Positions 20,409 to 49,370 of a stretch of 57,044 nt of DNA are shown here, piece after piece (the stretch's first letter is position 1; every line of letters begins with the position of its first letter). The stretch lies in NCBI GenBank assembly GCA_039180385.1, contig JBCDDJ010000001.1, forward strand, positions 1-57,044. Direction: 5' to 3'. Source of the DNA: Cyanobacteria bacterium P01_G01_bin.38 (lineage in GTDB: Bacteria; Cyanobacteriota; Cyanobacteriia; Phormidesmidales; Phormidesmidaceae). The notes beneath the pieces are model-generated. The model made no database searches and was not told where the DNA came from. It worked only from the letters and a program-made list of their open reading frames with translations. The position numbers and the translations under genes are program-made.

Positions 20409-23400
20409 TTAGCGTTCTACACTGGCTGTTTGTGGAGTTGGCCGAGTGAGATCGCGCTCCAGTCGCTTGACAAATGCCTTAAATCGCTGGCAGTCGTCGG
20501 CTGTGACTACTGTGCGCTGAATCTTGTTCTGAGCAATTTCTAGAATGGTCTGCGGCTGTGGCTTAAGTCTCTGAACTGTTAAACTATCAGAGGTTTGTTT
20601 TAGCTCGTAAGTCTTTCCTTTGAACCGAATTTCTTGCCCGTCTTGGCGACCTACAGATGCCAGGATGAATTGGGAGGCTTGAGAAACGTACTTTCCTCGC
20701 TGTTTTTGAACCTGATAAAGTTCAAGATCCCGAGTCATTTTTTGCTGTACTGATTGAGGTATAATCAACCTTCCATCTGTGCAGTTTTTTGCTAACTGTC
20801 CTAGTTTCTTAATGTACTCCAAGCGTTGAGAGTTTTGCCCCGTGTCACGAGCGGCCCGGTACCATTCTCTTAATGCATCTACATCTATATTGACTTCTTT
20901 TTTGTTAGAGGCTGCTGAATGTCCGTTCTGTTCGTTAGTAGGTGGGCCTGTAGCATGAATTTCTGAAGTAGAGCGGCGAGAAACCAACTCGTTGGTCTGA
21001 GGTGGATTTGGTTCAGATTGAGTATCCTGCTTTGGTGCTGGTTTATCCTCAGCCGAAGGCATGTCCCAGGTCGGATCGATCCCTGCTGCATCCCCAAACC
21101 TGTCTACCTGTGGAACCTGATGAAAAGGCTCTAAGTTAAGTAGGCTAGTCTCTTGCATAACAGACTCTGCTGCCGGAGTCTCGACATTATTCAATGTCTC
21201 TGATGCCTCTGAGTTTTCTTCTGCTTGAGACGCAATCACCTCCAAACTCTGCCTAGCCGCTTCTGCAAATCCTTGATGATTAATATTCCGAGCGAACATC
21301 TGTGCAAAGCCTCGGTCACATCTGCGATACTCGCCTCCCATCGACTGCACAGCTGTTTCTTTCAGTGTCAACAGTCCCTGCTTAGATATATCCAATACCA
21401 TCTCGGTGTCGATAAACATGTCCCCGTTTTGTCTCAGGTAGTGGGTCAAATAAAGCTGCTTCCCGTGTCGCTCTACCACAAGCGGGATATAGGGCTCATT
21501 CTCAATCTTTAGATGAAAATCTTCTCCTTGCAGGATAGTCTCAATCAGCCCTGCATCTGATAAGAATTTAGCTACCTGCTTTTCAGCTCCTCCCGTTTGT
21601 TCCTTTGCGGGTGCAACTCGGGCAACAGTGGAGGATACCTCTGGCTGAGATTCAGCTGCTTCAGTCACAGGTTCTTCAGTCTGTGCTGAAGTATTTCCCT
21701 GTAAATGACTATCATTAACTGAAGCTAAAGACGCTAACAACTGCTTATCCACCAGCAGACTTGTCACTTTCCCACAGTTTTCCTGAGTTGGCTCAGGCAG
21801 ACAGGGAACAGAATTATCCTGTGCTGCATAGTTACCTGATTCCACCAACTCTAGCGTAGGCAGCTCTTCGCCTAAATAGTCTCGCGCCTGATCTTTGAAA
21901 TCAAACGCGGCCAGCGTGATTTGTTTTTCCTTCATCAGGACGATCAGCACCGGATCAATCTGCTCAGCAGGGACGACTACCTCCATCCGATCTGACACAG
22001 AATAAAAGTCAGCCCCCACTGACTCAAGAATGTCTTTATCCAGGAAATACTTTCCCCCTACGCTGGTCGCTTTCGGCGTCTGAAGGACAAAACCATCCGC
22101 CTGACTGCCTGAGAGTCGAGCAGCGGCCTGAGTTTTGATAGCTAAAACCTCATCCAAAGTCTTCACAATGCCCTTATTTTGAGTAATCTCTGTCAGGAAA
22201 GCTTTTACCTGATACGGTTCTCGAAAGGCTACCGGCTCTGCTCGCAGAGATTCCTCAATATCAAAGCCCGCAGACATCATCAGTCCCTGCCGGATATGGC
22301 CTCGGTGGTCGGTGTAGTTTAGGAACTGTCCTTTAGGATATTTCTCAAAAGCCCGCAGTAGGTTGCCAGTAAAGATTTGAGTTTCTCGTCGCTGCTGAGC
22401 CTGCTTTAGATCAAATGAATCGTAGATATCCGCCCCATCCCAGTTCTGCATCTGGGGCATGATGTTAACCGCATTCTCCCTTTGTGTATTGATTTTAGAG
22501 AGTGGCAACGTAATCTCCCGTGCCTGGCTATCGGTAAACACCTGTAATCGCCAATTTGTTGGCGCAGCGGGGCTCCCCTGACGTCCTTTTTGCCACACAT
22601 TCGCGACAACGCCATAGGCAATATTGCCCTGCTCAGAGATGAGTCGAATAGAGGTGCCCGGTGAAAAGTTCGTCAGAATAGAGCTGACGTGATCAAATTG
22701 CTCATTCAAACGCTCAGTCAGTTTTGCCATTGCCTGGGGCGTTCTCTTCTTGGGTATCATCCTGCGCCGATAGTCTCCAACTGCCTGCTTCAACCCTGCT
22801 GTTGTTTGCTGAGCTTGTGCGCTAGCGATGGATCGAGCTTGCTCAAAATCATGCGATTCTAACGAGCGCACAGGGTCTAACCCGAGCTGTCTACGTACAG
22901 CACCAATCACCTGAAGCCGCGTCATAGGTTTGACTGGAATCTTGGCGTCTACCACCTCTAGATAGACTGGTCCCGTGAACTCATTACGAATACCACTCTC
23001 ATCTGGAATGACTTCCATTCGAGCAATGGTGCGAGCGTCGAGGTCAAGCTGCTCTGCTGCAAGCACGTTTTCACCCATTGCTCGCTTCTGAGCAATCAGG
23101 TCTGTTGTTTCTGACTCAATCAAACTGTAAACCTGTTCTTGCTCTTCAATTGGCAGCAGTGGAATGCGACCTGTGACTCGACTAATCAGCTCAATTTCTG
23201 AGCTGCCTTGTAAGTTTGCAGACGGGTAGCCTAGCTTTGCCTGTAACTCTGGGTCATCTTCTAGAATCTCAGTGACCACAGCTTCACCATAGACGTTCAT
23301 AAAGTCCACAACATTTGTGACCGAGAGATCTGAGTCACGGGAGGCGGTCGTATTCGCATTGAGGGAAGCCATCTTCTTTGCCAGCAGTGCCCCCAACCGT

Positions 23401-26400
23401 TTCTCCGCAGGCAAGTCAGACATCAATAGGGTAAATTTGGGCTCAACCACCTGTCCAAACCGATTGGCGCGTCCAAGCATCTGCATGACCTGGTTGATAT
23501 CCCGTTCGGCCTGAGCCACAATCATGTGACGCGGGCGCTGGTCAGCAAATTTCTTTGAGGCATGAAGGCTTATCCCAGTGGAGCCAGAGCGGTTGAGGAT
23601 GACTACATCCAACTGACCGCGATTGAAACGATTGACCACCTCAATTTTGCCCTGGGGCCGAGTTTCACGACTGGAGCGCCGCGCATAGCTCATCTGACCC
23701 GTAATACCGTAATCAACAATATTTTTGCGTCCTGTGATTTCATCTACGGAATAGCCTTCTTGTCGCAGCCGCCATTTGATGTAGTCGATAGAGCTGAGAG
23801 GCACGGCTGAGAGATCGGTCTGGGCAATCAGCTCACGAGCTTCGTCATAGGCCGCAACCCCATCCGGGCCTAGCTCTGCATCGGTCAAAGGGCGTCGGGT
23901 TTGCAATCCCTCAAAATCCTTGAGAACAACATCGCGAGAGCGCTCCAGATAGCGATCTAAGACATCACCAAAGGAAATGTCGATAGCGTCGTCGGGTTCG
24001 AGCCCGTTGTCCTTGGCGTACCAATCGATGAAGGCATCCATCGTTGAAGCCACTGCAATCAGAGGTTTCTCGCCATTTTGGAGTGCCTGAATCGAAGCTT
24101 GAACGGTCGCTTCTGCTTTCTGACACAGCAGTCCCTGGTCAATAGCGTTGTGCATCAGGGAGGTGAAGTTAGTGGAATGCACACCCACCTGACCAATCGC
24201 GTTGTCCGATCCAAACTGCTTAGCTTCTTTTTTAATTTCCTTTCGGAGTTCGCTCAAGGCTTCGATTTTAGTCCGATCAAATGCGTCTACTGCTCGCATA
24301 ATCGCTGAGATGCCATCAGCCACCTCTCGGTCTACGGGTATCACCTGAGCTTTGAAAGAGATATTTTCAAAAGATCGCTCTCGTCTCAGCAGCTGGCCCG
24401 AGGCTACAAACTTGGTCGCCATCATCTGCTGGAGTGGGATGCCCCCAGACCGGAGGATGTTTTCTAAACTGCTCAAGCTAGAGACCGCCTGCATTGCATC
24501 GCTGCGGCGAGCATAGAGATCCATTACAGCCGGATCTTTGGTCGCTGTAGCGCTCAAGAAGACTGCCCCCGCACAGCGATCGATCAACTTCCGCACAAAT
24601 TCAGCTCGATTGGGTGGGCCGCTGGTCTTCCAAGACTGTGATTGCCCCGTACTGCCTCCTGCCTCATGAGACTCATCAAAAATGAAGACGGCTCTGGGGG
24701 CAAGGGCTCTGAAGAACTGACGACGGAAGGGCTCTTTGTTCTTGATGGTTTGTAGCTGACTGTAGGTGGTAAACACAGCGTCATAGTCCTGTCCCAAACT
24801 CCCCTGCTGAACGATTCGTCGCATTTCTGCTTCCTGCTCAGCGCCGCTGCCGGTCTTTAGCTTGCGGCCATCGTCTAGCTCAAGGGACAGACTGTTGTTA
24901 GTCGGGAACGGCTTGAATCCTGGCTTCCCGATATCAGCCAAATCGTTGATCATCGCATTGTAGAGATCGGGCTGTCGGGTGACAAAGATAGGGATGAAGC
25001 CCTGCCGCCGGGCATCAATAATGTTGGCTGCACCAAAGCGTCCCTTACCGTTGCCAGTCTGGTCGCCATTGAGAAAGATTTTGCCTTGGTCTCGTTGGTC
25101 GAAAGCCAGTGCTAGCGAGTCAATCTGCTCAGCATAAAGCACCCGCCACATTGCTGTAGGTGAGTCATAGTCGAGTCGCTGACAAACAAACTCATCGATG
25201 TCACCTCGTCTGCGCTCAACTTTGTCAAGGGCAGTCTGAGCCGCTGCCGCCATGTTTGCTGGGATGAGCGTGCCGGGTGAAGTGCCTTTGCTGCGAGGAA
25301 CGTAGGCAATATTATGAGATTGAGAATCAATCTGTATGTCCTGTTCAGGTGTGGCCATCGTGGATTGCCTCAACTCATCTCGGCGGTCAGGTAGCTCAGC
25401 CAGGTTTCCAGTGTGATCTCGTCGTTGTGTTCGCTCCGCCAGTCTTTCTGAATGGTGGGTTCGCTCGGGAGCTGCACGGGTGTCGGGAAGACCCAGCCGT
25501 TTTGCAGCTCGAACTTGGCCATCAGCGTCTCGTTGTAGCGCACCAGGGTTTCGCTCCAGTCCTCGGCCCATTCCTCTATCGGCCTCAAGTCTTGCGTCCC
25601 TGGCGTATGAAGGACTGGCGGGGTTTGTGGCGAGTAAAGCGTCTTGAGAGCCCTGGCTAATCGGCGAGCCATTGCTTCTTGAGACTCGTTGGTTTCCCCC
25701 ATCCAGACGTAAATCATCCACTGAATCCGTAGCATCATGAGTTTCAAGTAGATCTCGTCGGTCATTTCCTGAAGGTCGGGCGGTATTCGTACCATGAATA
25801 AGCCCTGATCTCCGGTTCCCTTGGGTTTCCAAACCTGGGAAAAGTCTTGATAATCCTGGTAGGTGGGTGGTTGCGTGGTGTAGTTTCTCATTTGGAATCA
25901 GCTCCTTGAGTTCATCAAAAGTTTTATAGATAGGCGGGACAGCCGCTGCCGGGAGGGGTCGTTCAGATGGACTTCGGCCTTCAATCAAAATCAGGTCGAT
26001 GGGAAAACCGGCTCCCTGTTTGCGATAGAGATCTCCCCAGATAGAGATTTGCTGAGTGACGTTGTACTGTTGATAGAGAGCATAGAAAAATCCTCGACTT
26101 TCTATCGTGTTGTATCGCTTAGAGCGCAGTGCCTCATCTGTTCCTAATTTGCCTCCCAAAATTAGAACTGCCTTGCCATCAGCTCTCATCGCTGATAAAG
26201 CAAGGAGTGAGATGGCCTGATCAATCTGAGTTGTTCCTCTGCGATTTCCAGGTAAAACAAATCGTCGCCGTTGGCCTTTGGTGTCCCGCACCGAGCCGAA
26301 GGGAGGATTTGCGATCACCACATCATGCAATTGACTGGGCTGGTAGCTGAGCGCATTGTGCTGAGTTACTTGATAGCCCTGCGATCTCAAATCCTCAGCT

Positions 26401-26855
26401 CGCTCAGGATTCAGCTCATTCACGGTTGCCTTAGTCAGATCTGTTGCCAGCAGCAACGCTCCATGCCCGGCAGTCGGTTCGTAGACCGTTGTGTCTGGAG
26501 TAATCCCTGCTAGCGTAGAAGCCAGATAAGCAATTGGAATCGGTGTGCTGTAAGCCTGTTGAAGCACGCTGGTAGAAGAGCGAACATTCAGTGATGGCTG
26601 TCGAGCGTGCAAATCCACCAGGCGATCATAGGCTTCGTGAAAAGTTTCGGCGTCCTGAATAATTACTCGGGCAGCTCTCACTAACCCAGACTCAATCGCC
26701 TCATCTACCTGTTTGGCGAGGGCCGTACCCGGACTCACCTTTTCGGTCAGAACCGCAGCCGCATATTTTCTGGCCTGGGTAATCGTGGCAAAGCACCCGC
26801 CCGTCAGAAAATGATAGGCAAAGGTATCTACCAGCGATAGTTGAGCCTCCGCCAT
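20409..26855 (-). CDS. giant N6-adenine DNA methyltransferase / strawberry-notch-like (Sno, DExH) helicase ORF (2148 aa as one open frame; may be composite)
   Basis: Methylase motif I YEPTAGHGALL and motif IV VVIANPPFG (aa about 125-186). Helicase GDQTGNGKGR (P-loop), FIFDESHEAGG (DExH), LNRSGSTGISLH, QMLGRANRFGQ. A low-complexity R/D/G-rich stretch lies between the two halves (see finding at 25356-25907). Confidence 0.8.
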   Translation of the reverse strand: MAEAQLSLVDTFAYHFLTGGCFATITQARKYAAAVLTEKVSPGTALAKQVDEAIESGLVRAARVIIQDAETFHEAYDRLVDLHARQPSLNVRSSTSVLQQAYSTPIPIAYLASTLAGITPDTTVYEPTAGHGALLLATDLTKATVNELNPERAEDLRSQGYQVTQHNALSYQPSQLHDVVIANPPFGSVRDTKGQRRRFVLPGNRRGTTQIDQAISLLALSAMRADGKAVLILGGKLGTDEALRSKRYNTIESRGFFYALYQQYNVTQQISIWGDLYRKQGAGFPIDLILIEGRSPSERPLPAAAVPPIYKTFDELKELIPNEKLHHATTHLPGLSRLFPGLETQGNRRSGLIHGTNTARPSGNDRRDLLETHDATDSVDDLRLDGGNQRVSRSNGSPISQGSQDALLATNPASPSYARDARLEADRGMGRGLERNPGALQRDADGQVRAAKRLGLPDTRAAPERTHHSERLAERTQRRDHTGNLAELPDRRDELRQSTMATPEQDIQIDSQSHNIAYVPRSKGTSPGTLIPANMAAAAQTALDKVERRRGDIDEFVCQRLDYDSPTAMWRVLYAEQIDSLALAFDQRDQGKIFLNGDQTGNGKGRFGAANIIDARRQGFIPIFVTRQPDLYNAMINDLADIGKPGFKPFPTNNSLSLELDDGRKLKTGSGAEQEAEMRRIVQQGSLGQDYDAVFTTYSQLQTIKNKEPFRRQFFRALAPRAVFIFDESHEAGGSTGQSQSWKTSGPPNRAEFVRKLIDRCAGAVFLSATATKDPAVMDLYARRSDAMQAVSSLSSLENILRSGGIPLQQMMATKFVASGQLLRRERSFENISFKAQVIPVDREVADGISAIMRAVDAFDRTKIEALSELRKEIKKEAKQFGSDNAIGQVGVHSTNFTSLMHNAIDQGLLCQKAEATVQASIQALQNGEKPLIAVASTMDAFIDWYAKDNGLEPDDAIDISFGDVLDRYLERSRDVVLKDFEGLQTRRPLTDAELGPDGVAAYDEARELIAQTDLSAVPLSSIDYIKWRLRQEGYSVDEITGRKNIVDYGITGQMSYARRSSRETRPQGKIEVVNRFNRGQLDVVILNRSGSTGISLHASKKFADQRPRHMIVAQAERDINQVMQMLGRANRFGQVVEPKFTLLMSDLPAEKRLGALLAKKMASLNANTTASRDSDLSVTNVVDFMNVYGEAVVTEILEDDPELQAKLGYPSANLQGSSEIELISRVTGRIPLLPIEEQEQVYSLIESETTDLIAQKRAMGENVLAAEQLDLDARTIARMEVIPDESGIRNEFTGPVYLEVVDAKIPVKPMTRLQVIGAVRRQLGLDPVRSLESHDFEQARSIASAQAQQTTAGLKQAVGDYRRRMIPKKRTPQAMAKLTERLNEQFDHVSSILTNFSPGTSIRLISEQGNIAYGVVANVWQKGRQGSPAAPTNWRLQVFTDSQAREITLPLSKINTQRENAVNIMPQMQNWDGADIYDSFDLKQAQQRRETQIFTGNLLRAFEKYPKGQFLNYTDHRGHIRQGLMMSAGFDIEESLRAEPVAFREPYQVKAFLTEITQNKGIVKTLDEVLAIKTQAAARLSGSQADGFVLQTPKATSVGGKYFLDKDILESVGADFYSVSDRMEVVVPAEQIDPVLIVLMKEKQITLAAFDFKDQARDYLGEELPTLELVESGNYAAQDNSVPCLPEPTQENCGKVTSLLVDKQLLASLASVNDSHLQGNTSAQTEEPVTEAAESQPEVSSTVARVAPAKEQTGGAEKQVAKFLSDAGLIETILQGEDFHLKIENEPYIPLVVERHGKQLYLTHYLRQNGDMFIDTEMVLDISKQGLLTLKETAVQSMGGEYRRCDRGFAQMFARNINHQGFAEAARQSLEVIASQAEENSEASETLNNVETPAAESVMQETSLLNLEPFHQVPQVDRFGDAAGIDPTWDMPSAEDKPAPKQDTQSEPNPPQTNELVSRRSTSEIHATGPPTNEQNGHSAASNKKEVNIDVDALREWYRAARDTGQNSQRLEYIKKLGQLAKNCTDGRLIIPQSVQQKMTRDLELYQVQKQRGKYVSQASQFILASVGRQDGQEIRFKGKTYELKQTSDSLTVQRLKPQPQTILEIAQNKIQRTVVTADDCQRFKAFVKRLERDLTRPTPQTASVER
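25370..25891 (-). CDS. embedded out-of-frame ORF (173 aa, acidic, Trp-rich) inside the methylase-helicase linker
   Basis: ATG at 25891 preceded by AAGGAG (25907-25902, 10-nt spacer). A TGA lies 3 codons upstream in the same frame. Third codon positions are mostly G/C, as in neighbouring genes. The translation is globular-looking, whereas the overlapping frame of the giant ORF is rich in CGA/AGA/GGA/CTA codons and low-complexity. Confidence 0.5.
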   Translation of the reverse strand: MRNYTTQPPTYQDYQDFSQVWKPKGTGDQGLFMVRIPPDLQEMTDEIYLKLMMLRIQWMIYVWMGETNESQEAMARRLARALKTLYSPQTPPVLHTPGTQDLRPIEEWAEDWSETLVRYNETLMAKFELQNGWVFPTPVQLPSEPTIQKDWRSEHNDEITLETWLSYLTAEMS

Positions 26856-43571: not shown

Positions 43572-46500
43572 TTAACCAGTTTCTTGTAATCCAGCCGCAA
43601 TCGCATCGATAGAAAATAGTGTGCCTCGCAACAATTCACCACGACTGTAGCGTGATTCTCTTCTACCCAAAGACACAGCAACATCGCGATGTTCTCGAAA
43701 GCGTTTAACTAGCTCAACTTGTAAAAAGCCAAGTGGAGCAATAGTTTCTTCTCGAAATTGTAAAGATCGCTGCAAGTCAGGATTGTCATCTAACAATTGT
43801 TCGTGTGATGTGATCAACAAAATTAGATCGCGAGTCAAATTATACTCGCTGACTATTTGCTCAAAAATTGCCTCGAACCGTTTTTGATCCTCGGGTTGGG
43901 ATAGTTGTTGTAAGTAATGATGAGCGATTCGCAAATTTACTTTGGCTAGAGCCATCTCACACTTCGAAACAACCATATGAAAGAATGGCCATTTGTGATA
44001 AAAGGAGCGTAACAGCTTTATATGCTCATCTGGTGCTTTCTCTAAAAAGCCTTGAAGCGCGGTGCCAACTCCGTACCAAGATTGAAGAGAAAACCGAGAT
44101 TGATTCCAACTGAACATCCATGGTATAGTCCCTAGTTCAGCAGTTTTCCCACTTCTGCTCTTCCCAAACTTAGGCCGAGAGCTAATTTGGAGTTGGGAAA
44201 TCTCATCGAAGGGAGTAACTCTATAGAAAAAATCAACAAAGCCTGGCTGTTCATAAACTAGATCGCGATAGGCAGAACTAGCACGCGCAGATAATTCTGT
44301 CATAATTTCATTCCAAGGTTGAATCTCATCATATCCGCTTGGCAGTAAACTTAATTGTAAAACTGCAGATGCGACACCTTCTAAGTTAGATAAGGCCACC
44401 TCTGGTAGAAGATATTTAGCAGCTAAATCTTCTCCTTGCTCTGTAATTTTTATTCGACCATCTATGACTTTCCCTGGCTGAGCAAGAATCGTTTCATGAA
44501 TAAGGCCACCACCACGCCCTATTGAGCCACCCTTTTCATAGAGAATTCTTAGAAATATGCCATGTTTTTCAGCCATTTTCTGTAGAGAATACTGTGCTTT
44601 ATGGATTTCCCAGTTACTACTGAGAAATCCTATATCTTTATTAGTTTCAGAATAGCTAACTAGCAATTCCTGAATAAATATTGGCTCTTCTTGATATGGG
44701 TCTTTGCCCTCTTTTTCCAAAAAGGTTTGATATAAAGGTAAATCAAACAATGTAGACATAACTTTTGTAGCTAGATTCAGATCTTCTAGTGTTTCAAATG
44801 AGGGAACAACCTGAATTGCACTATGCTCTGTAGCAGGGTTATAAAGACTGGCTTCTTTAGCAAGAAGAAGAGCTTCTAAGACATGACTGGCCCGATTGCA
44901 TTGAGAAATAATATATTTTTGACAAATTCCGAGACCAAATTCTTTTTGAAGAGCGGCAATCATGCGAAAGGTTTGAAGGCGTTCATTTGTTTTTTTAGAT
45001 AGAGGTAACATTAAAGCTCCCAAAGGGCGAAGAGACTTTAGTTCCGTTACCAACCACAACACTCGCTCCTCTTCAGTGAGCTCGTTATACCGACGAGGTG
45101 AAAGCTTTAGATATCCAATAATTTCATCTACGGCATTAGTATGAACAGAACAGTTCTGCTTTATGTCCAAATGTGCGAAACTAAACCCAAAAACTTCTAC
45201 TTGGCAGATCAAATCATTGAGCTGCTGACAAACCAAACCGGTGCCTTCAAGGCTCTGCTGAATCAAATATAACTCTGCTAAAAACTCTTCTGCAGAGCTG
45301 TAGAACTGGGGAGAAGTTTCTACTAAATTCTCTGCCTGAGTGTAAATGATCTCATGGAGTTTTTGGCTACGTTCATAGGTGTTGATCAAACGATGTTCGA
45401 TAAAGACCAATTTAAGCCGGTAGGGTTCCTGGCGATAGCGAATAGAATATTGCTCGTACACATCGGGTAGAACTAAACGATCCTCCTCTAGTGATTCGAG
45501 TATCGCTGAGAAAACCTCGCTCCAATGCAATGATGGGCTGAGCAAGCCGGTAAGCTTTCGAACAGAGTCGATATACTTTCGTAATACTAAGTTGCGCTGG
45601 TGACAAGCTGCTTTCCACGTGATTTCAGGTGAAACAGACGGATTACCATCTTGATCTGCTCCAACCCAGGAGCCAAGCCTGCAAAAGTTACGTTTGGGTA
45701 GACGCATATTGCGGTAATTATCTTTAAGTGCTTGATGAAAGCGTTGATAGAGCGAAGGAATTACATCAAACAGTACATCCTGAAAATAATGAAGTGTAAA
45801 ATCTACTTCATCTAATACATGGGGTTTAAACTGATGCAGCTCATCTGTACGCCACCAAAGCGTTAGTTCGTTTATGAAATGTTCTCGCAGATTTTTGACT
45901 TCTGTTGAGGACAAGGAACTTTTATTCATCAATTTCTCTTCGGCTCTATCGATTTTCCGCAAAATCTCGACGGTTTTCCGCTGTTTATCTCGAATTGTGT
46001 ACCGAAAAATCTCTGTTGGATGGGATGTAAATACTAGTTGTACATCTAATCTATCCAAAACTCGCTGCACTTTTTGAGGTGGTACATTCAAACCACGTAA
46101 TTTTGGAAACAAGACTTGAAATTGGGCACTTATTTCATTTCCTTCATTTATAGTACCTGACCTGAATGTATTTTCTTTCAAAGATGTTTTATATTGTTGT
46201 CGAATTCTTTTCTCGAAGCATTGCTCTACAATATTGACTATATGAAAGTAAAGAATCAGAGCCCTTATGAGTCGAATCATCTCCTCCAGACTGAGTTCCT
46301 CAACTACTTTAAGCACATCCAAAGTGCTCTCTTCCAATTCTTTGTTTTTTTGAGAGTATATTGATCGCAAACGTACCATCGAATTCAGTATCTCACTGCC
46401 ACATTCAAGGGCTACGACAGAGTTAACACTATCTTCAATGAACTTGAGAGGATGATTCAGGAAGAAAGGTTCGGTCGACAGACTTTGCAACGCTTCCTCA

Positions 46501-49370
46501 GTTATGGCCTCCCCTACTACTTGTTCGCTTTGCTTTGGAACTTGACGCAACAATACTTCCAATGCTTGCTTGCGCTTTTGCTCGGATTTTTTACGTTCTT
46601 GCTCAAATTGCATCTGCTCTTGCAGCAGTTGGCTCTCTCGTTGTTTTACTTCTAATAACAATTCCTCAGCTTGTTTCTTAGCATTTTTAACTTCTTGTTC
46701 AGTCAGTTGTTGTTCAAGTCTTGCCTCCGTTAACTTTTGACGAAGATCTAGATTTTCTTGATGTCGAATAAGAGGAACCAAATAATCATGAACTAACTGA
46801 TATCGATCAGCGGAAGCTTCTAGTAAGCGCAGCACTATTCCCGAACCAACTAAAATCATTAGAATCAAACGCAATGTCTCCAGATTAAAAATCACACCAA
46901 GCGCTTCTAAATCCTGTGCGAGCTCAGTATGAGTTTTAATAGGGCGAGTATTGTTTTCATCAGTTAATAAATATAAAACTAACCTTGCTACCTGCTCATT
47001 CACATCGCCGCAATCTTTAACAACTTCTTCTAGGAATCTGTTGACAATCTGGTCTTTAGAACCTTTGTCAAGGTATGTTTGTAGAGTACTGATCTTCTCG
47101 ACTTGAAGCTGGGTCCCTAAAACCTGCAACTCAATTGGGAGAACTTGACCATATTCTCCTGCTAAGTCTTTCACAACCCTATTGACCAATTTAGGTTCCA
47201 TACTAAGCTGGGTATCTTCAGTTAATGCTTGAATAACTGATTTAGCATCTTCAGTAGTAAGATTTTCGAGAAAAAATAGAATATCTTTGTGTAAAATGTT
47301 GTTTATTTTCTTTAAATTAACGAGACGGTCATTACATTCTAAAATGCGGTGCAAATAGTCTTCTCGTATCGCCAAAAAAACCTTTACATAATCTATCTCT
47401 AGACAGGCATCTAGAAACTCATAAAACTGCTTTCTTTGATCAGGATCTTGGCAGGCAAAGAAAAACTCTTCAAATTGATCAAGCACCAAAATCGTCACTA
47501 AATTTCGATTCAGAGTATTTTCTTGGAGTTGTCTCAAAATATCTAATGTCGAAATTAGAGGACGATCAGGAACTGATACATTTGGCACCTTTTGGATAGA
47601 TTTCACTAAATGTTGCCCTAAATCCTCGATCCAGTTAGTATAAATTTGAAGAGTAATGATAGTCAGATTACGTGTATCAAGTGAGGAAGAAGACAAAACT
47701 GGGACTAATCCTGCCTGTATTATTGAGCTTTTCCCAACCCCCGAAGGACCGTAAAGGATAGTGAGCCGACAGTCAGTCCTATCCATAATGCGTCTAATTA
47801 AATCTTGAACTTTTTGTTGTCGTCCAGAAGCGATTATTTCTTTGGCAATGCGTTCATCCTTTTTTGCAACAGCTGAGATAGGATCAAAAACAGTTTTTGA
47901 GGGGCGCAATCGGCCAGCACCAATAAATGCTAAGAAACCATATTGTTGCTTAATAGCTTGTGAAAATTCTTTGATATTAAAAGCTTTGAGATATTCTTTC
48001 TGAGCAAAGTATACCTGGCGTAATACATCTAGAATTCGGATATAAAGAAGTGGATCATATTGAGGGTTGGAACTTGTTTTAGCCTTATTTAAGTTATCAA
48101 TTGCCTCGGAGGTTTGATTGAGATGATACTGTGCTTCTGCTAGTAATAATAAATAAAAACTCTCATAGTGCTGTCTTTCCCACTCCAAGTCAACATTGGG
48201 TTTTGAAGGCATTGAATTTGTTGCTAACGCAAGTTCAGCATAATGTTTTGCTGTTTTCCAATTCGAACTTCGTATTGCCACCTCAGCCATTAAGCCATAA
48301 CCATAAGCAAGTCGAACAGGTTCATGATGTTTCTGATGTAAATCAATAGCTGTTTGAGCAATCTCCTGTAATTCGTCAACTGTCTGTTCATTCAATTGAA
48401 CTAATACTTCCCCCCAAGCATTGACGAACTTTGCTGCTAACTCATCGTATTGAGCCTGTTGTAGTTCTCTTACACATTGATGGAAATAGTTTTTTGCCTT
48501 GCGACATGCTATCTGGTAATCTGCTCGATGCGGAGAAACATACTGACGCCACCACAAGCCTAGATAAAATGCAACGCAACTTAAACGTTGGATAGCAGCA
48601 GTAGATTTCTCATCCTTTACGCTTTCATTCCAGATCTTTAAGCTATTTTCATAAAACTGACGAGCGTTAGCTCTTTCGCCAAAAATATCTCTCACTTGCC
48701 CTTGAAGGAAAAATAAACTCGCCTCTAGATCACGACTCAAAGGAGCATTACTGCTTAGGAAATCTGAAGCTGCAAAATCCAGTTCCTTTGCATGACGAAA
48801 ATCAAGAGGTTGATTGAGAGTGACTGTTTTTAGAAATCTACTATCGCCTAAGCTCAAAATCGCGTTGAACACTTTATCTATTGAGCGCTTTAGGCAAGCA
48901 TCTAATTCATCTATCGAGATACTAAATTCTATGGGAATCGCAGCCCAGCTCTTGAAATCAGGAGCTATTTTGGACATTTTCTTTAAAAGAGAATCATTTA
49001 CCCATAAAATCAACGGAAAATCAAGCTCTCGGCGAAATTCCTCGCGAATTTGGTTTGTCGAAATTAGTAATTTGTCGATATCAGTTACCGACTCTAAACC
49101 AAATATCATTAAGGCTTGAGGATGCTGTTCACTCAACTCCTTCTGAATTTCTGTATAAAGTGATCCTGACGATTCCTGCAAATGCAGTTCATAGATTTGA
49201 ATAGAACATAGTTCCTTCAATTTTTCCACCATTTGCTCTCTCAGGTGAGCATAATTACATTTCACTAAATTTAGAGAGAATTCTCCCCGAGAAAGCTCAA
49301 TTGCACGTGCTAAAGTCTTGAGCGATTCCTCATTTGCCAACACTGTTGGATTTTGACTAGAGTTACTCAT
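43572..49370 (-). CDS. 1932-aa fusion: N-terminal conserved module + TPR-like repeats + STAND-type P-loop NTPase + coiled coil + complete PEP-carboxylase-like domain
   Basis: Walker A LYGPSGVGKSS (aa 539-549, nt 47724-47750). Walker B ILVLDQFEEFF (aa 627-637). Coiled coil at aa about 880-945. PEPC signatures: VFTSHPTE (aa 1113-1120, nt 46011-46028), SWVGADQDGNP, LDIKQNCS, VPSFETLEDL, SYSETNKDIG, EKGGSIGRGGG (nt 44505-44531), KITEQGE, IPWMFSWNQSR, C-terminal AAGLQETG. Uninterrupted ORF in DNA of roughly 30-38% GC. Confidence 0.85.
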   Translation of the reverse strand: MSNSSQNPTVLANEESLKTLARAIELSRGEFSLNLVKCNYAHLREQMVEKLKELCSIQIYELHLQESSGSLYTEIQKELSEQHPQALMIFGLESVTDIDKLLISTNQIREEFRRELDFPLILWVNDSLLKKMSKIAPDFKSWAAIPIEFSISIDELDACLKRSIDKVFNAILSLGDSRFLKTVTLNQPLDFRHAKELDFAASDFLSSNAPLSRDLEASLFFLQGQVRDIFGERANARQFYENSLKIWNESVKDEKSTAAIQRLSCVAFYLGLWWRQYVSPHRADYQIACRKAKNYFHQCVRELQQAQYDELAAKFVNAWGEVLVQLNEQTVDELQEIAQTAIDLHQKHHEPVRLAYGYGLMAEVAIRSSNWKTAKHYAELALATNSMPSKPNVDLEWERQHYESFYLLLLAEAQYHLNQTSEAIDNLNKAKTSSNPQYDPLLYIRILDVLRQVYFAQKEYLKAFNIKEFSQAIKQQYGFLAFIGAGRLRPSKTVFDPISAVAKKDERIAKEIIASGRQQKVQDLIRRIMDRTDCRLTILYGPSGVGKSSIIQAGLVPVLSSSSLDTRNLTIITLQIYTNWIEDLGQHLVKSIQKVPNVSVPDRPLISTLDILRQLQENTLNRNLVTILVLDQFEEFFFACQDPDQRKQFYEFLDACLEIDYVKVFLAIREDYLHRILECNDRLVNLKKINNILHKDILFFLENLTTEDAKSVIQALTEDTQLSMEPKLVNRVVKDLAGEYGQVLPIELQVLGTQLQVEKISTLQTYLDKGSKDQIVNRFLEEVVKDCGDVNEQVARLVLYLLTDENNTRPIKTHTELAQDLEALGVIFNLETLRLILMILVGSGIVLRLLEASADRYQLVHDYLVPLIRHQENLDLRQKLTEARLEQQLTEQEVKNAKKQAEELLLEVKQRESQLLQEQMQFEQERKKSEQKRKQALEVLLRQVPKQSEQVVGEAITEEALQSLSTEPFFLNHPLKFIEDSVNSVVALECGSEILNSMVRLRSIYSQKNKELEESTLDVLKVVEELSLEEMIRLIRALILYFHIVNIVEQCFEKRIRQQYKTSLKENTFRSGTINEGNEISAQFQVLFPKLRGLNVPPQKVQRVLDRLDVQLVFTSHPTEIFRYTIRDKQRKTVEILRKIDRAEEKLMNKSSLSSTEVKNLREHFINELTLWWRTDELHQFKPHVLDEVDFTLHYFQDVLFDVIPSLYQRFHQALKDNYRNMRLPKRNFCRLGSWVGADQDGNPSVSPEITWKAACHQRNLVLRKYIDSVRKLTGLLSPSLHWSEVFSAILESLEEDRLVLPDVYEQYSIRYRQEPYRLKLVFIEHRLINTYERSQKLHEIIYTQAENLVETSPQFYSSAEEFLAELYLIQQSLEGTGLVCQQLNDLICQVEVFGFSFAHLDIKQNCSVHTNAVDEIIGYLKLSPRRYNELTEEERVLWLVTELKSLRPLGALMLPLSKKTNERLQTFRMIAALQKEFGLGICQKYIISQCNRASHVLEALLLAKEASLYNPATEHSAIQVVPSFETLEDLNLATKVMSTLFDLPLYQTFLEKEGKDPYQEEPIFIQELLVSYSETNKDIGFLSSNWEIHKAQYSLQKMAEKHGIFLRILYEKGGSIGRGGGLIHETILAQPGKVIDGRIKITEQGEDLAAKYLLPEVALSNLEGVASAVLQLSLLPSGYDEIQPWNEIMTELSARASSAYRDLVYEQPGFVDFFYRVTPFDEISQLQISSRPKFGKSRSGKTAELGTIPWMFSWNQSRFSLQSWYGVGTALQGFLEKAPDEHIKLLRSFYHKWPFFHMVVSKCEMALAKVNLRIAHHYLQQLSQPEDQKRFEAIFEQIVSEYNLTRDLILLITSHEQLLDDNPDLQRSLQFREETIAPLGFLQVELVKRFREHRDVAVSLGRRESRYSRGELLRGTLFSIDAIAAGLQETG

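Follow-up and report, generated by a model that had tools for sequence, protein, structure and literature searches.

How do two reading frames of the same DNA strand come to be open together for about 520 nucleotides (nt)? The question is raised by contig JBCDDJ010000001.1 of Cyanobacteria bacterium P01_G01_bin.38 (assembly GCA_039180385.1), the first 57,044 nt of which are the stretch analyzed here, hereafter the window. A giant open reading frame (ORF) of 2148 amino acids (aa), located on the minus strand at 20409-26855, joins an N6-adenine methylase, through a linker, to a Strawberry-notch (SWI2/SNF2-type) helicase, followed by DUF6908 and a C-terminal tail. Inside the linker, an ORF of 173 aa (25370-25891, minus strand) is open in the +1 frame of the giant ORF. 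A preliminary description of the locus had offered as explanations an overlapping gene in a disordered linker, the loss of the methylase stop codon, and programmed or erroneous frameshifts. The first of these, with which homologues, frame-specific selection and conserved start signals all agree, is favored here: the small ORF is very probably a genuine nested gene, overlapping its host on the same strand and encoding a constrained acidic protein, and the giant frame would act over the same nucleotides as an open spacer joining methylase to helicase. Comparative analysis shows that both frames are maintained, that selection on them is asymmetric, that the start signals of the nested ORF are conserved and that its product is foldable.

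Layout of the overlap in the window

The 173-aa ORF and the region of double opening were reproduced at the same coordinates, as were the signals described at both ends. The nested ATG (25891-25889) is preceded, at a spacing of 10 nt, by the Shine-Dalgarno (SD) sequence AAGGAG (25907-25902), which falls within the Lys-Glu codons of the ELKEL motif of the methylase, and a TGA in the same frame is found three codons upstream (25900-25898). The ORF ends at a TGA (25372-25370), and 11 nt later an ATG in the giant frame (25358-25356), with a GAGG 9 nt before it (25368-25371), may start a helicase-only isoform of 1649 aa.

The two frames encode very different products. The small protein, member of a previously unnamed family, is acidic and Trp-rich, and predicted to be mostly helical; it features 8 Trp residues, 25 Asp or Glu versus 15 Lys or Arg, a computed isoelectric point (pI) of 4.65 and a net charge of about -10. 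The giant frame across it (25368-25892) encodes a stop-free, low-complexity linker rich in Arg, Gly, Ser and Asp (26 Arg, 17 Gly, pI 9.6). Asp and Glu codons of the nested frame (GAN) are read as NGA in the linker, and can therefore only give Arg, Gly or a forbidden stop; by the arithmetic of the genetic code, an acidic small protein thus entails a basic linker rich in Arg and Gly. The charge complementarity of the two products is a consequence of the code.

Stops are not equally rare in all frames of the region. The third frame of the same strand contains 12 stops over the same 525 nt, and the reverse frames 3 to 15. When the synonymous codons of the small protein were resampled according to flanking usage, the giant frame was open in 0 of 2000 trials; when the codons of the ORF itself were permuted, in 0.2% of trials. 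Avoidance of stops in both frames, previously noted by eye, is thus beyond chance, as seen from both synonymous resampling and third-frame counts.

Compositional data speak less clearly. The GC content at third codon positions of the embedded frame had been said to match that of neighboring genes; at about 0.70-0.75 it lies clearly above the 0.49 of the giant ORF, and the match does not hold. The profile of GC by codon position is suggestive, and undecisive at a GC content around 50%. In the overlap, codon usage scores 0.094 bits per codon when read in the embedded frame and 0.028 when read in the giant one, both intermediate between the values found in the giant gene for normal coding windows (0.25) and normal +1 frames (-0.43). 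The intermediate scores are what could be set in favor of an ORF never translated, conserved either because of an RNA- or DNA-level element or as a compositional side effect of the linker. This reading is highly improbable in the light of the substitution patterns discussed below.

Distribution of the two-frame arrangement

The overlap was monitored in 80 of the 202 related loci found, which were retrieved with the methylase domain alone, so that the sample is not biased toward loci carrying the small ORF. Retrieved loci are nearly all cyanobacterial (Leptolyngbya, Nodosilinea, Nostoc, Brasilonema, Chroococcidiopsis, Hydrococcus, Symploca, Oscillatoria, and others). A hidden Markov model (HMM) of the small protein matches 75 of the 80 loci, always in a frame shifted one base downstream relative to that of the methylase. 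Three further loci, L052, L090 and L073 (the last with a degraded remnant), were recognized with a broader HMM and by reading the sequences directly, and homologues are thus carried by 78 loci, always in the +1 frame; the remaining two end before the overlap region. The same arrangement resides in finished plasmids of Acaryochloris, Leptolyngbya and Picosynechococcus, and in a TARA Oceans (marine metagenome) contig. By tblastn, the small protein matches six cyanobacterial plasmids at 31-41% identity, in each under an annotated Strawberry-notch gene; inspection of three of these plasmids showed that the match corresponds to an ORF of 160-173 aa, beginning with ATG, in the +1 frame of a giant gene annotated as a single coding sequence (CDS).

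A few loci are altered. The overlap of L054 is frameshifted, a deletion in L073 removes most of the nested gene, L087 has stops in both methylase and helicase next to an intact nested ORF, and L006 a short duplication. The damaged copies L054, L073 and L087 look like pseudogenes or assembly errors, and they are the one observation in keeping with the notion that the two-frame layout itself arose by sequencing or assembly error, or by recent local mutation (a lost methylase stop, compensating frameshifts). The notion is refuted by the recurrence of the layout in 78 genomes out of 80, assembled independently of each other, and in plasmids whose sequence is finished. Sequencing error, erroneous frameshifting and a methylase stop lost locally, all previously considered, do not account for an arrangement kept across the whole phylum.

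In several Nodosilinea genomes the locus is present three or four times, on separate contigs (L013/L020/L046; L017/L051/L069/L086; L022/L053/L061). In loci L015 and L043 the overlap is 93% identical, yet identity of the methylase to the query is 75% in one and 62% in the other, a pattern which hints at mosaic recombination.

Homologues of the small protein are rarely called as proteins, 10 clusters being found in a database of 5.8 billion clusters. When 1.84 billion representative proteins were searched with a profile, 79 matched, nearly all 71-201 aa long, the sizes expected of full or partial calls of the nested ORF; L095, the sole contig checked among them, shows the same two-frame layout. 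The small-ORF calls that could be traced came from short contigs, or from L091, records in which the giant ORF was not visible to the gene caller. L091 (the contig of L055, an Elainella metagenome-assembled genome) is the sole NCBI record seen to annotate the small ORF (hypothetical protein ACKO7W_07025); here the helicase is called as a separate gene of 1503 aa, and the methylase part is unannotated.

Selection in the two frames

No stop was found in either the giant or the nested frame in any of 82 overlaps; the +2 frame of the same overlaps contains 5 to 20 stops (mean 12.4). If the sequence of the small protein is kept and codons are redrawn according to flanking usage, the probability that the giant frame stays open has a median of 0 and a mean of 6e-4 across loci; if the synonymous codons of the nested ORF are permuted, the median is 0.0085. 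Conversely, if the amino acids of the linker are fixed and synonymous codons resampled, only 0.3-4% of trials give an open +1 frame. Selection on the giant frame is seen in 19 non-overlapping pairs of close relatives, for which the observed substitution rates predict about 47 nonsense differences, versus zero found (Poisson P about 5e-21). Loss of the methylase stop, one of the explanations first put forward, is at odds with this result, the giant frame being itself strongly selected to stay open.

Amino acid sequences are constrained in one frame only. In pairs 90-99.5% identical in the methylase, positions 1, 2 and 3 of nested codons diverge by 0.065, 0.041 and 0.144, respectively. The pattern is that of normal coding DNA for the nested frame, and makes the wobble position of the giant frame its most conserved one. 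Differences were sorted according to what they do in each of the two frames, which gave omega values of 0.23-0.29 (nested frame) and 0.96-1.23 (linker); for comparison, omega is 0.24 in the methylase domain and 0.09 at the start of the helicase. Purifying selection thus acts on the embedded frame, and amino acid constraint on the host frame within the overlap is not found. Pairwise amino acid identity, averaged over 43 dereplicated loci, is 31% for the nested protein versus 19% for the linker. Indels preserve the frame, as seen among nested proteins 143-175 aa long. The linker is taken as disordered because of both its omega, close to 1, and its low-complexity composition. All this suggests that the host frame is in the overlap an open spacer, selected for openness only.

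The same data bear on the idea of an untranslated ORF. Substitutions ranked as position 2 < position 1 < position 3 in the nested frame, with omega around 0.25, indels which keep that frame, and a +1 frame so rarely left open by chance are hard to reconcile with an RNA or DNA element or a side effect of linker composition. To this adds the fold confidently predicted (see below) from the alignment of translated nested ORFs and called homologues.

Start signals of the nested gene

The nested ATG lies at a fixed distance from the terminal F-x-E-L-K-E-L motif of the methylase. The giant codons spanning it vary as NAT-GNN, encoding Asn, Asp, His or Tyr followed by Glu, Asp, Ala, Val or Gly; residues of the giant protein being variable here, it is the nucleotides ATG that are conserved, not the amino acids. 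A core SD is found 5-18 nt upstream of the ATG in 43 of 46 dereplicated loci, versus 9.6% of background windows. The SD persists through residue changes, KE, RE, GE, RG and GG all spelling GGAG, GAGG or AGGA. Where Lys-Glu is present, Lys is encoded by AAG 27 times and never by AAA, Glu by GAG 28 times and twice by GAA, in comparison to backgrounds of 46% and 44%. The ATG and SD, first noticed in a single sequence, are therefore conserved in the family. Predictions for the coding strand gave no internal promoter or terminator, and initiation inside the mRNA of the giant gene seems the simplest reading.

A programmed +1 frameshift near the nested ATG, which would yield a methylase/small-protein fusion in place of, or alongside, the product of internal initiation, is unlikely. 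In many lineages the codon pair containing the ATG is preceded by CCC or CCN (CCC-NAT-G), a context prone to +1 slippage, and in the metagenomic protein P0067 (468 aa) a methylase continues, in frame, into the last two thirds of the small protein. However, other clades have Leu codons (CTC, TTA, CTT) in the place of Pro, and the switch of frame in P0067 occurs about 30 codons inside the overlap, which makes mutation or assembly error a more probable source than recoding. In several loci a stop of the +1 frame directly precedes the ATG. A frameshift site would need neither the conserved ATG nor an SD at initiation-type spacing (5-12 nt), both of which are kept. Past the putative shift site frame 0 has no stop and runs for more than 1600 codons, unlike what is seen at sites of the prfB or insertion sequence (IS) type. 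A site of the prfB, dnaX or IS type accordingly fits poorly, as the zero frame does not end soon after it, and the +1 ORF has an ATG and SD of its own. At the 3' end of the overlap no conserved motif was found.

Fusion and separate start of the helicase

The order of domains, methylase, small protein, helicase, had suggested a layout of three adjacent genes. In 28 of 46 lineages, that of the window included, the nested stop is followed at no more than 40 nt by a Met of the giant frame, often with an SD-like sequence 9-13 nt upstream; in this part the suggestion stands. It fails in the remaining 18 lineages, in which the nested stop directly precedes the motif P-Y-x-P-[KR]-S, and no Met of the giant frame separates it from the conserved helicase motifs. 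In these elements the helicase can only be made as a fusion, and this would be why frame 0 must stay open.

Methylase, small gene and helicase might all the same be three ordinary genes, the open giant frame being a tolerated by-product, and the fusion irrelevant. In line with this, callers used for metagenomes and by NCBI give, on contigs which are short or damaged upstream, the small ORF and a helicase just downstream, and the Met just described follows the small gene in most lineages. Yet among 82 loci no intact one terminates the methylase frame before the helicase, a start codon for a separate helicase is missing in 18 of the 46 lineages, stops in the giant frame are selected against, and resampling almost never leaves that frame open. 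We regard three separate genes as quite improbable.

The overlap would then work as follows. About 520 nt are read in two frames. Frame 0 would carry ribosomes from the methylase into the helicase domain, and need only stay open in the overlap, the sequence of the spacer being dictated by the other frame. Frame +1 would be a separate gene with its own ATG, and its own SD embedded in the last codons of the methylase, for a compact protein of about 165 aa presumably made by internal initiation on the same mRNA. Fusion would be needed because the helicase of many lineages lacks a separate start codon; elsewhere translation may also begin right behind the stop of the small gene and give a helicase-only isoform, which may thus exist in some elements only.

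Some points weigh against this reading of a nested gene and its spacer. Omega was obtained by a simple counting method on 19 pairs, and mosaic-looking loci mean that close pairs may be incompletely independent. The synonymous-like rate is lower in the overlap (0.054) than in the flanks (0.085-0.094), which points to extra constraint. Binomial P values for codon choice at the SD ignore phylogenetic kinship. Translation of either frame is a conclusion from sequence comparison, and a role with the giant protein is deduced only from strict co-occurrence, because the small protein has no relative in sequence or structure.

The small protein

Members of the family are acidic (pI 4.1-5.2) and Trp-rich (median 7.5 Trp per protein). 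Arg55, Trp112, Phe135-Pro136 and a C-terminal L-E-x-W-L motif are conserved. AlphaFold2, run with 11 sequences, gave a predicted local distance difference test (pLDDT) score of 80.5 and a predicted template modeling (pTM) score of 0.82; with 64 sequences, the scores rose to 94.6 and 0.90, all five models being at or above 94.1 in pLDDT. The predicted fold is made up by six long helices and a few short strands.

The family has no counterpart in the collections searched. Pfam, NCBIfam, PHROGs and PADLOC gave nothing above noise for the small protein and 46 family members, and a profile search of PDB sequences gave chance matches only, such as IL-6 at E 0.17. No match was found in a search of PDB structures (best E >1, template modeling score at most 0.22), and nothing resembling the small protein in BFVD. 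Anti-restriction proteins and DNA mimics had been indicated as candidates for the 173-aa product. HMM and structure searches revealed no similarity to ArdA or Ocr, and a mimic of this type was rejected for lack of both family and PDB matches; the family is acidic, if less so than classical DNA mimics.

Since the small protein never occurs apart from the giant gene, joint action with the giant protein is thought most likely: it is found nowhere else, and could not be inherited without that gene. A partner, a regulator or an export chaperone of the giant protein would be, somewhat better than evenly, the expected role, and the small protein would act with it during establishment of the transferred element. 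An independent anti-defense protein is the next possibility, distinctly less probable. The small protein is alike in size, pI and obligate linkage to secretion chaperones, either VirE1-like or class I of type III secretion systems; no fold match was found. In a fuller scenario, put forward tentatively and doubtful as a whole, overprinting in a disordered linker would have generated de novo a stable fold unseen in PDB, and the protein would be the obligate partner of a giant counter-restriction protein, for instance as its export chaperone or regulator; being charge-complementary, the two products may bind.

Origin of the nested gene

Proteobacterial methylase/Strawberry-notch homologues have either a linker of 37 aa (Pseudomonas) or long acidic linkers (Acinetobacter, Xanthomonas). 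The +1 frame of the long Acinetobacter and Xanthomonas linkers is full of stops; a GC-rich Pseudomonas homologue has a short open +1 stretch of about 70 codons, and no open +1 frame is found otherwise. The DarB-like dyads of the Proteobacteria examined thus differ from the cyanobacterial host gene, the nested ORF being absent. Homology of the small protein to the in-frame proteobacterial linker was considered and rejected, no similarity being found. Among the 79 matches obtained in 1.84 billion representative proteins there is no clear free-standing relative in another context. Because proteobacterial homologues lack the small gene, and no clear free-standing relative is known, birth inside the linker of the cyanobacterial clade is favored: judging from these comparisons, the gene probably arose there by overprinting. 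Capture of a now-unsampled gene by read-through fusion is possible.

The host gene and its element

The methylase domain spans residues 1-320 of the giant ORF (25896-26855, minus strand), and terminates with the conserved motif F-x-E-L-K-E-L-I. It is 57-74% identical to four homologues, YEPTAGHG and NPPFG being invariant or nearly so; the Pfam match to N6_Mtase (residues 173-233) is weak, 15.7 bits against a cut-off of 20.4. Both Strawberry-notch lobes pass the Pfam gathering cut-off. The N-terminal ATPase lobe (AAA_34, 1.6e-15) corresponds to residues 572-844 (24324-25142, minus strand), the C-terminal lobe (Helicase_C_4, the Strawberry-notch C-terminal domain, 1e-25) to residues 1036-1261 (23073-23750, minus strand), and DUF6908 (Pfam) to residues 1760-1864. 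Homologues of the giant ORF in complete plasmids are annotated as single CDSs.

Genes adjoining the giant gene encode a TraG/VirD4 coupling protein, TrbI, an M23 peptidase and a Prim-Pol, and the giant gene is therefore part of a conjugative element. Its product is a DarB-like dyad of adenine methylase and SWI2/SNF2 (Strawberry-notch) helicase of the polyvalent-protein type. Architecture and conjugative setting are those of the DarB-like dyads described among polyvalent proteins, in which methylase and SWI2/SNF2 protein of conjugative elements have been proposed to shield incoming DNA from restriction (PMC5512222). A text search of PMC5512222 for the words "overlapping", "frameshift" and "linker" found none of them.

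The size of the giant protein varies. The Leptolyngbya NIES-3755 homologue (L002, 6043-13779) is 2578 aa long, its C-terminal end exceeding that of the window protein by about 430 aa; the tail is thus variable, as described for polyvalent proteins. In plasmid pAQ6 of Picosynechococcus sp. PCC 7002 (L096, 95717-105897) the methylase part is shorter, with about 234 aa before the nested ATG, and upstream of this copy are found a RelE/ParE toxin gene, a small hypothetical gene and a separately annotated large N-6 DNA methylase. Elsewhere in the window (43572-49370, minus strand) a single ORF of 1932 aa encodes an nSTAND1 NTPase (residues 516-891) and a complete phosphoenolpyruvate carboxylase (residues 972-1932), either as an odd fusion, or because an upstream frame chances to run into ppc.

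Comparison with known overlapping genes

No description of this overlap was found in literature searches. Long overlapping genes of bacteria are few, and those retrieved in literature searches are mostly antisense, several of them being described as evolutionarily young. Annotation pipelines forbid such overlaps. What is unusual here is a fully nested, same-strand overlap of 520 nt, in which both frames are kept across many cyanobacterial orders, with selection cleanly split between a folded protein in one frame and an open but meaningless tether in the other. The locus is a natural test case of how overprinting uses disordered linkers. It also adds a hidden protein family, which has no Pfam entry and no PDB-like fold, and sits in a gene thought to counter restriction in conjugative elements; the family may be a missing component of that machinery. 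A cultured carrier for experiments is available in Picosynechococcus sp. PCC 7002, the nested gene residing on pAQ6.

Unannotated ORFs inside annotated genes have been described before. For instance, olg1 and olg2 of Pseudomonas aeruginosa are reported to be antisense and evolutionarily novel (PMC8850804), and E. coli nog1 and laoB are attributed to overprinting, nog1 being recent and laoB antiparallel (PMC4683798, PMC5810103). As the gene described here, such ORFs are missed by gene callers because overlaps are disallowed. In contrast to them, the present gene lies on the same strand as its host, the nested frame is the more constrained one, the distribution is phylum-wide, and the fold is confidently predicted.

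Nested genes are otherwise well known, as in Rz/Rz1, comS and the genes of phiX174, and the present case joins this kind, standing out among bacterial ones by its length, deep conservation and clean statistics. In Bacillus subtilis comS is likewise a small, out-of-frame, same-strand gene with an internal start, set in a giant multidomain gene, srfAB. However, comS encodes 46 aa, is restricted to a narrow Bacillus group and overlaps a structured domain of a non-ribosomal peptide synthetase, whereas the gene analyzed here encodes 143-190 aa, is found in many cyanobacterial orders and resides in an inter-domain linker. Similar in layout are the spanin genes Rz and Rz1 of phage lambda, where the inner gene likewise lies entirely within its host gene, on the same strand, in the +1 frame and with its own start, and both belong to a mobile element. 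Rz1 is about 60 aa long, Rz and Rz1 are both functionally constrained, and their products work together. The nested gene of cyanobacteria is larger (about 165 aa), and its host frame appears to be a neutral spacer between two enzymatic domains; the two systems are related neither in sequence nor in fold, and joint action of the products, known for Rz and Rz1, is here proposed from co-occurrence.

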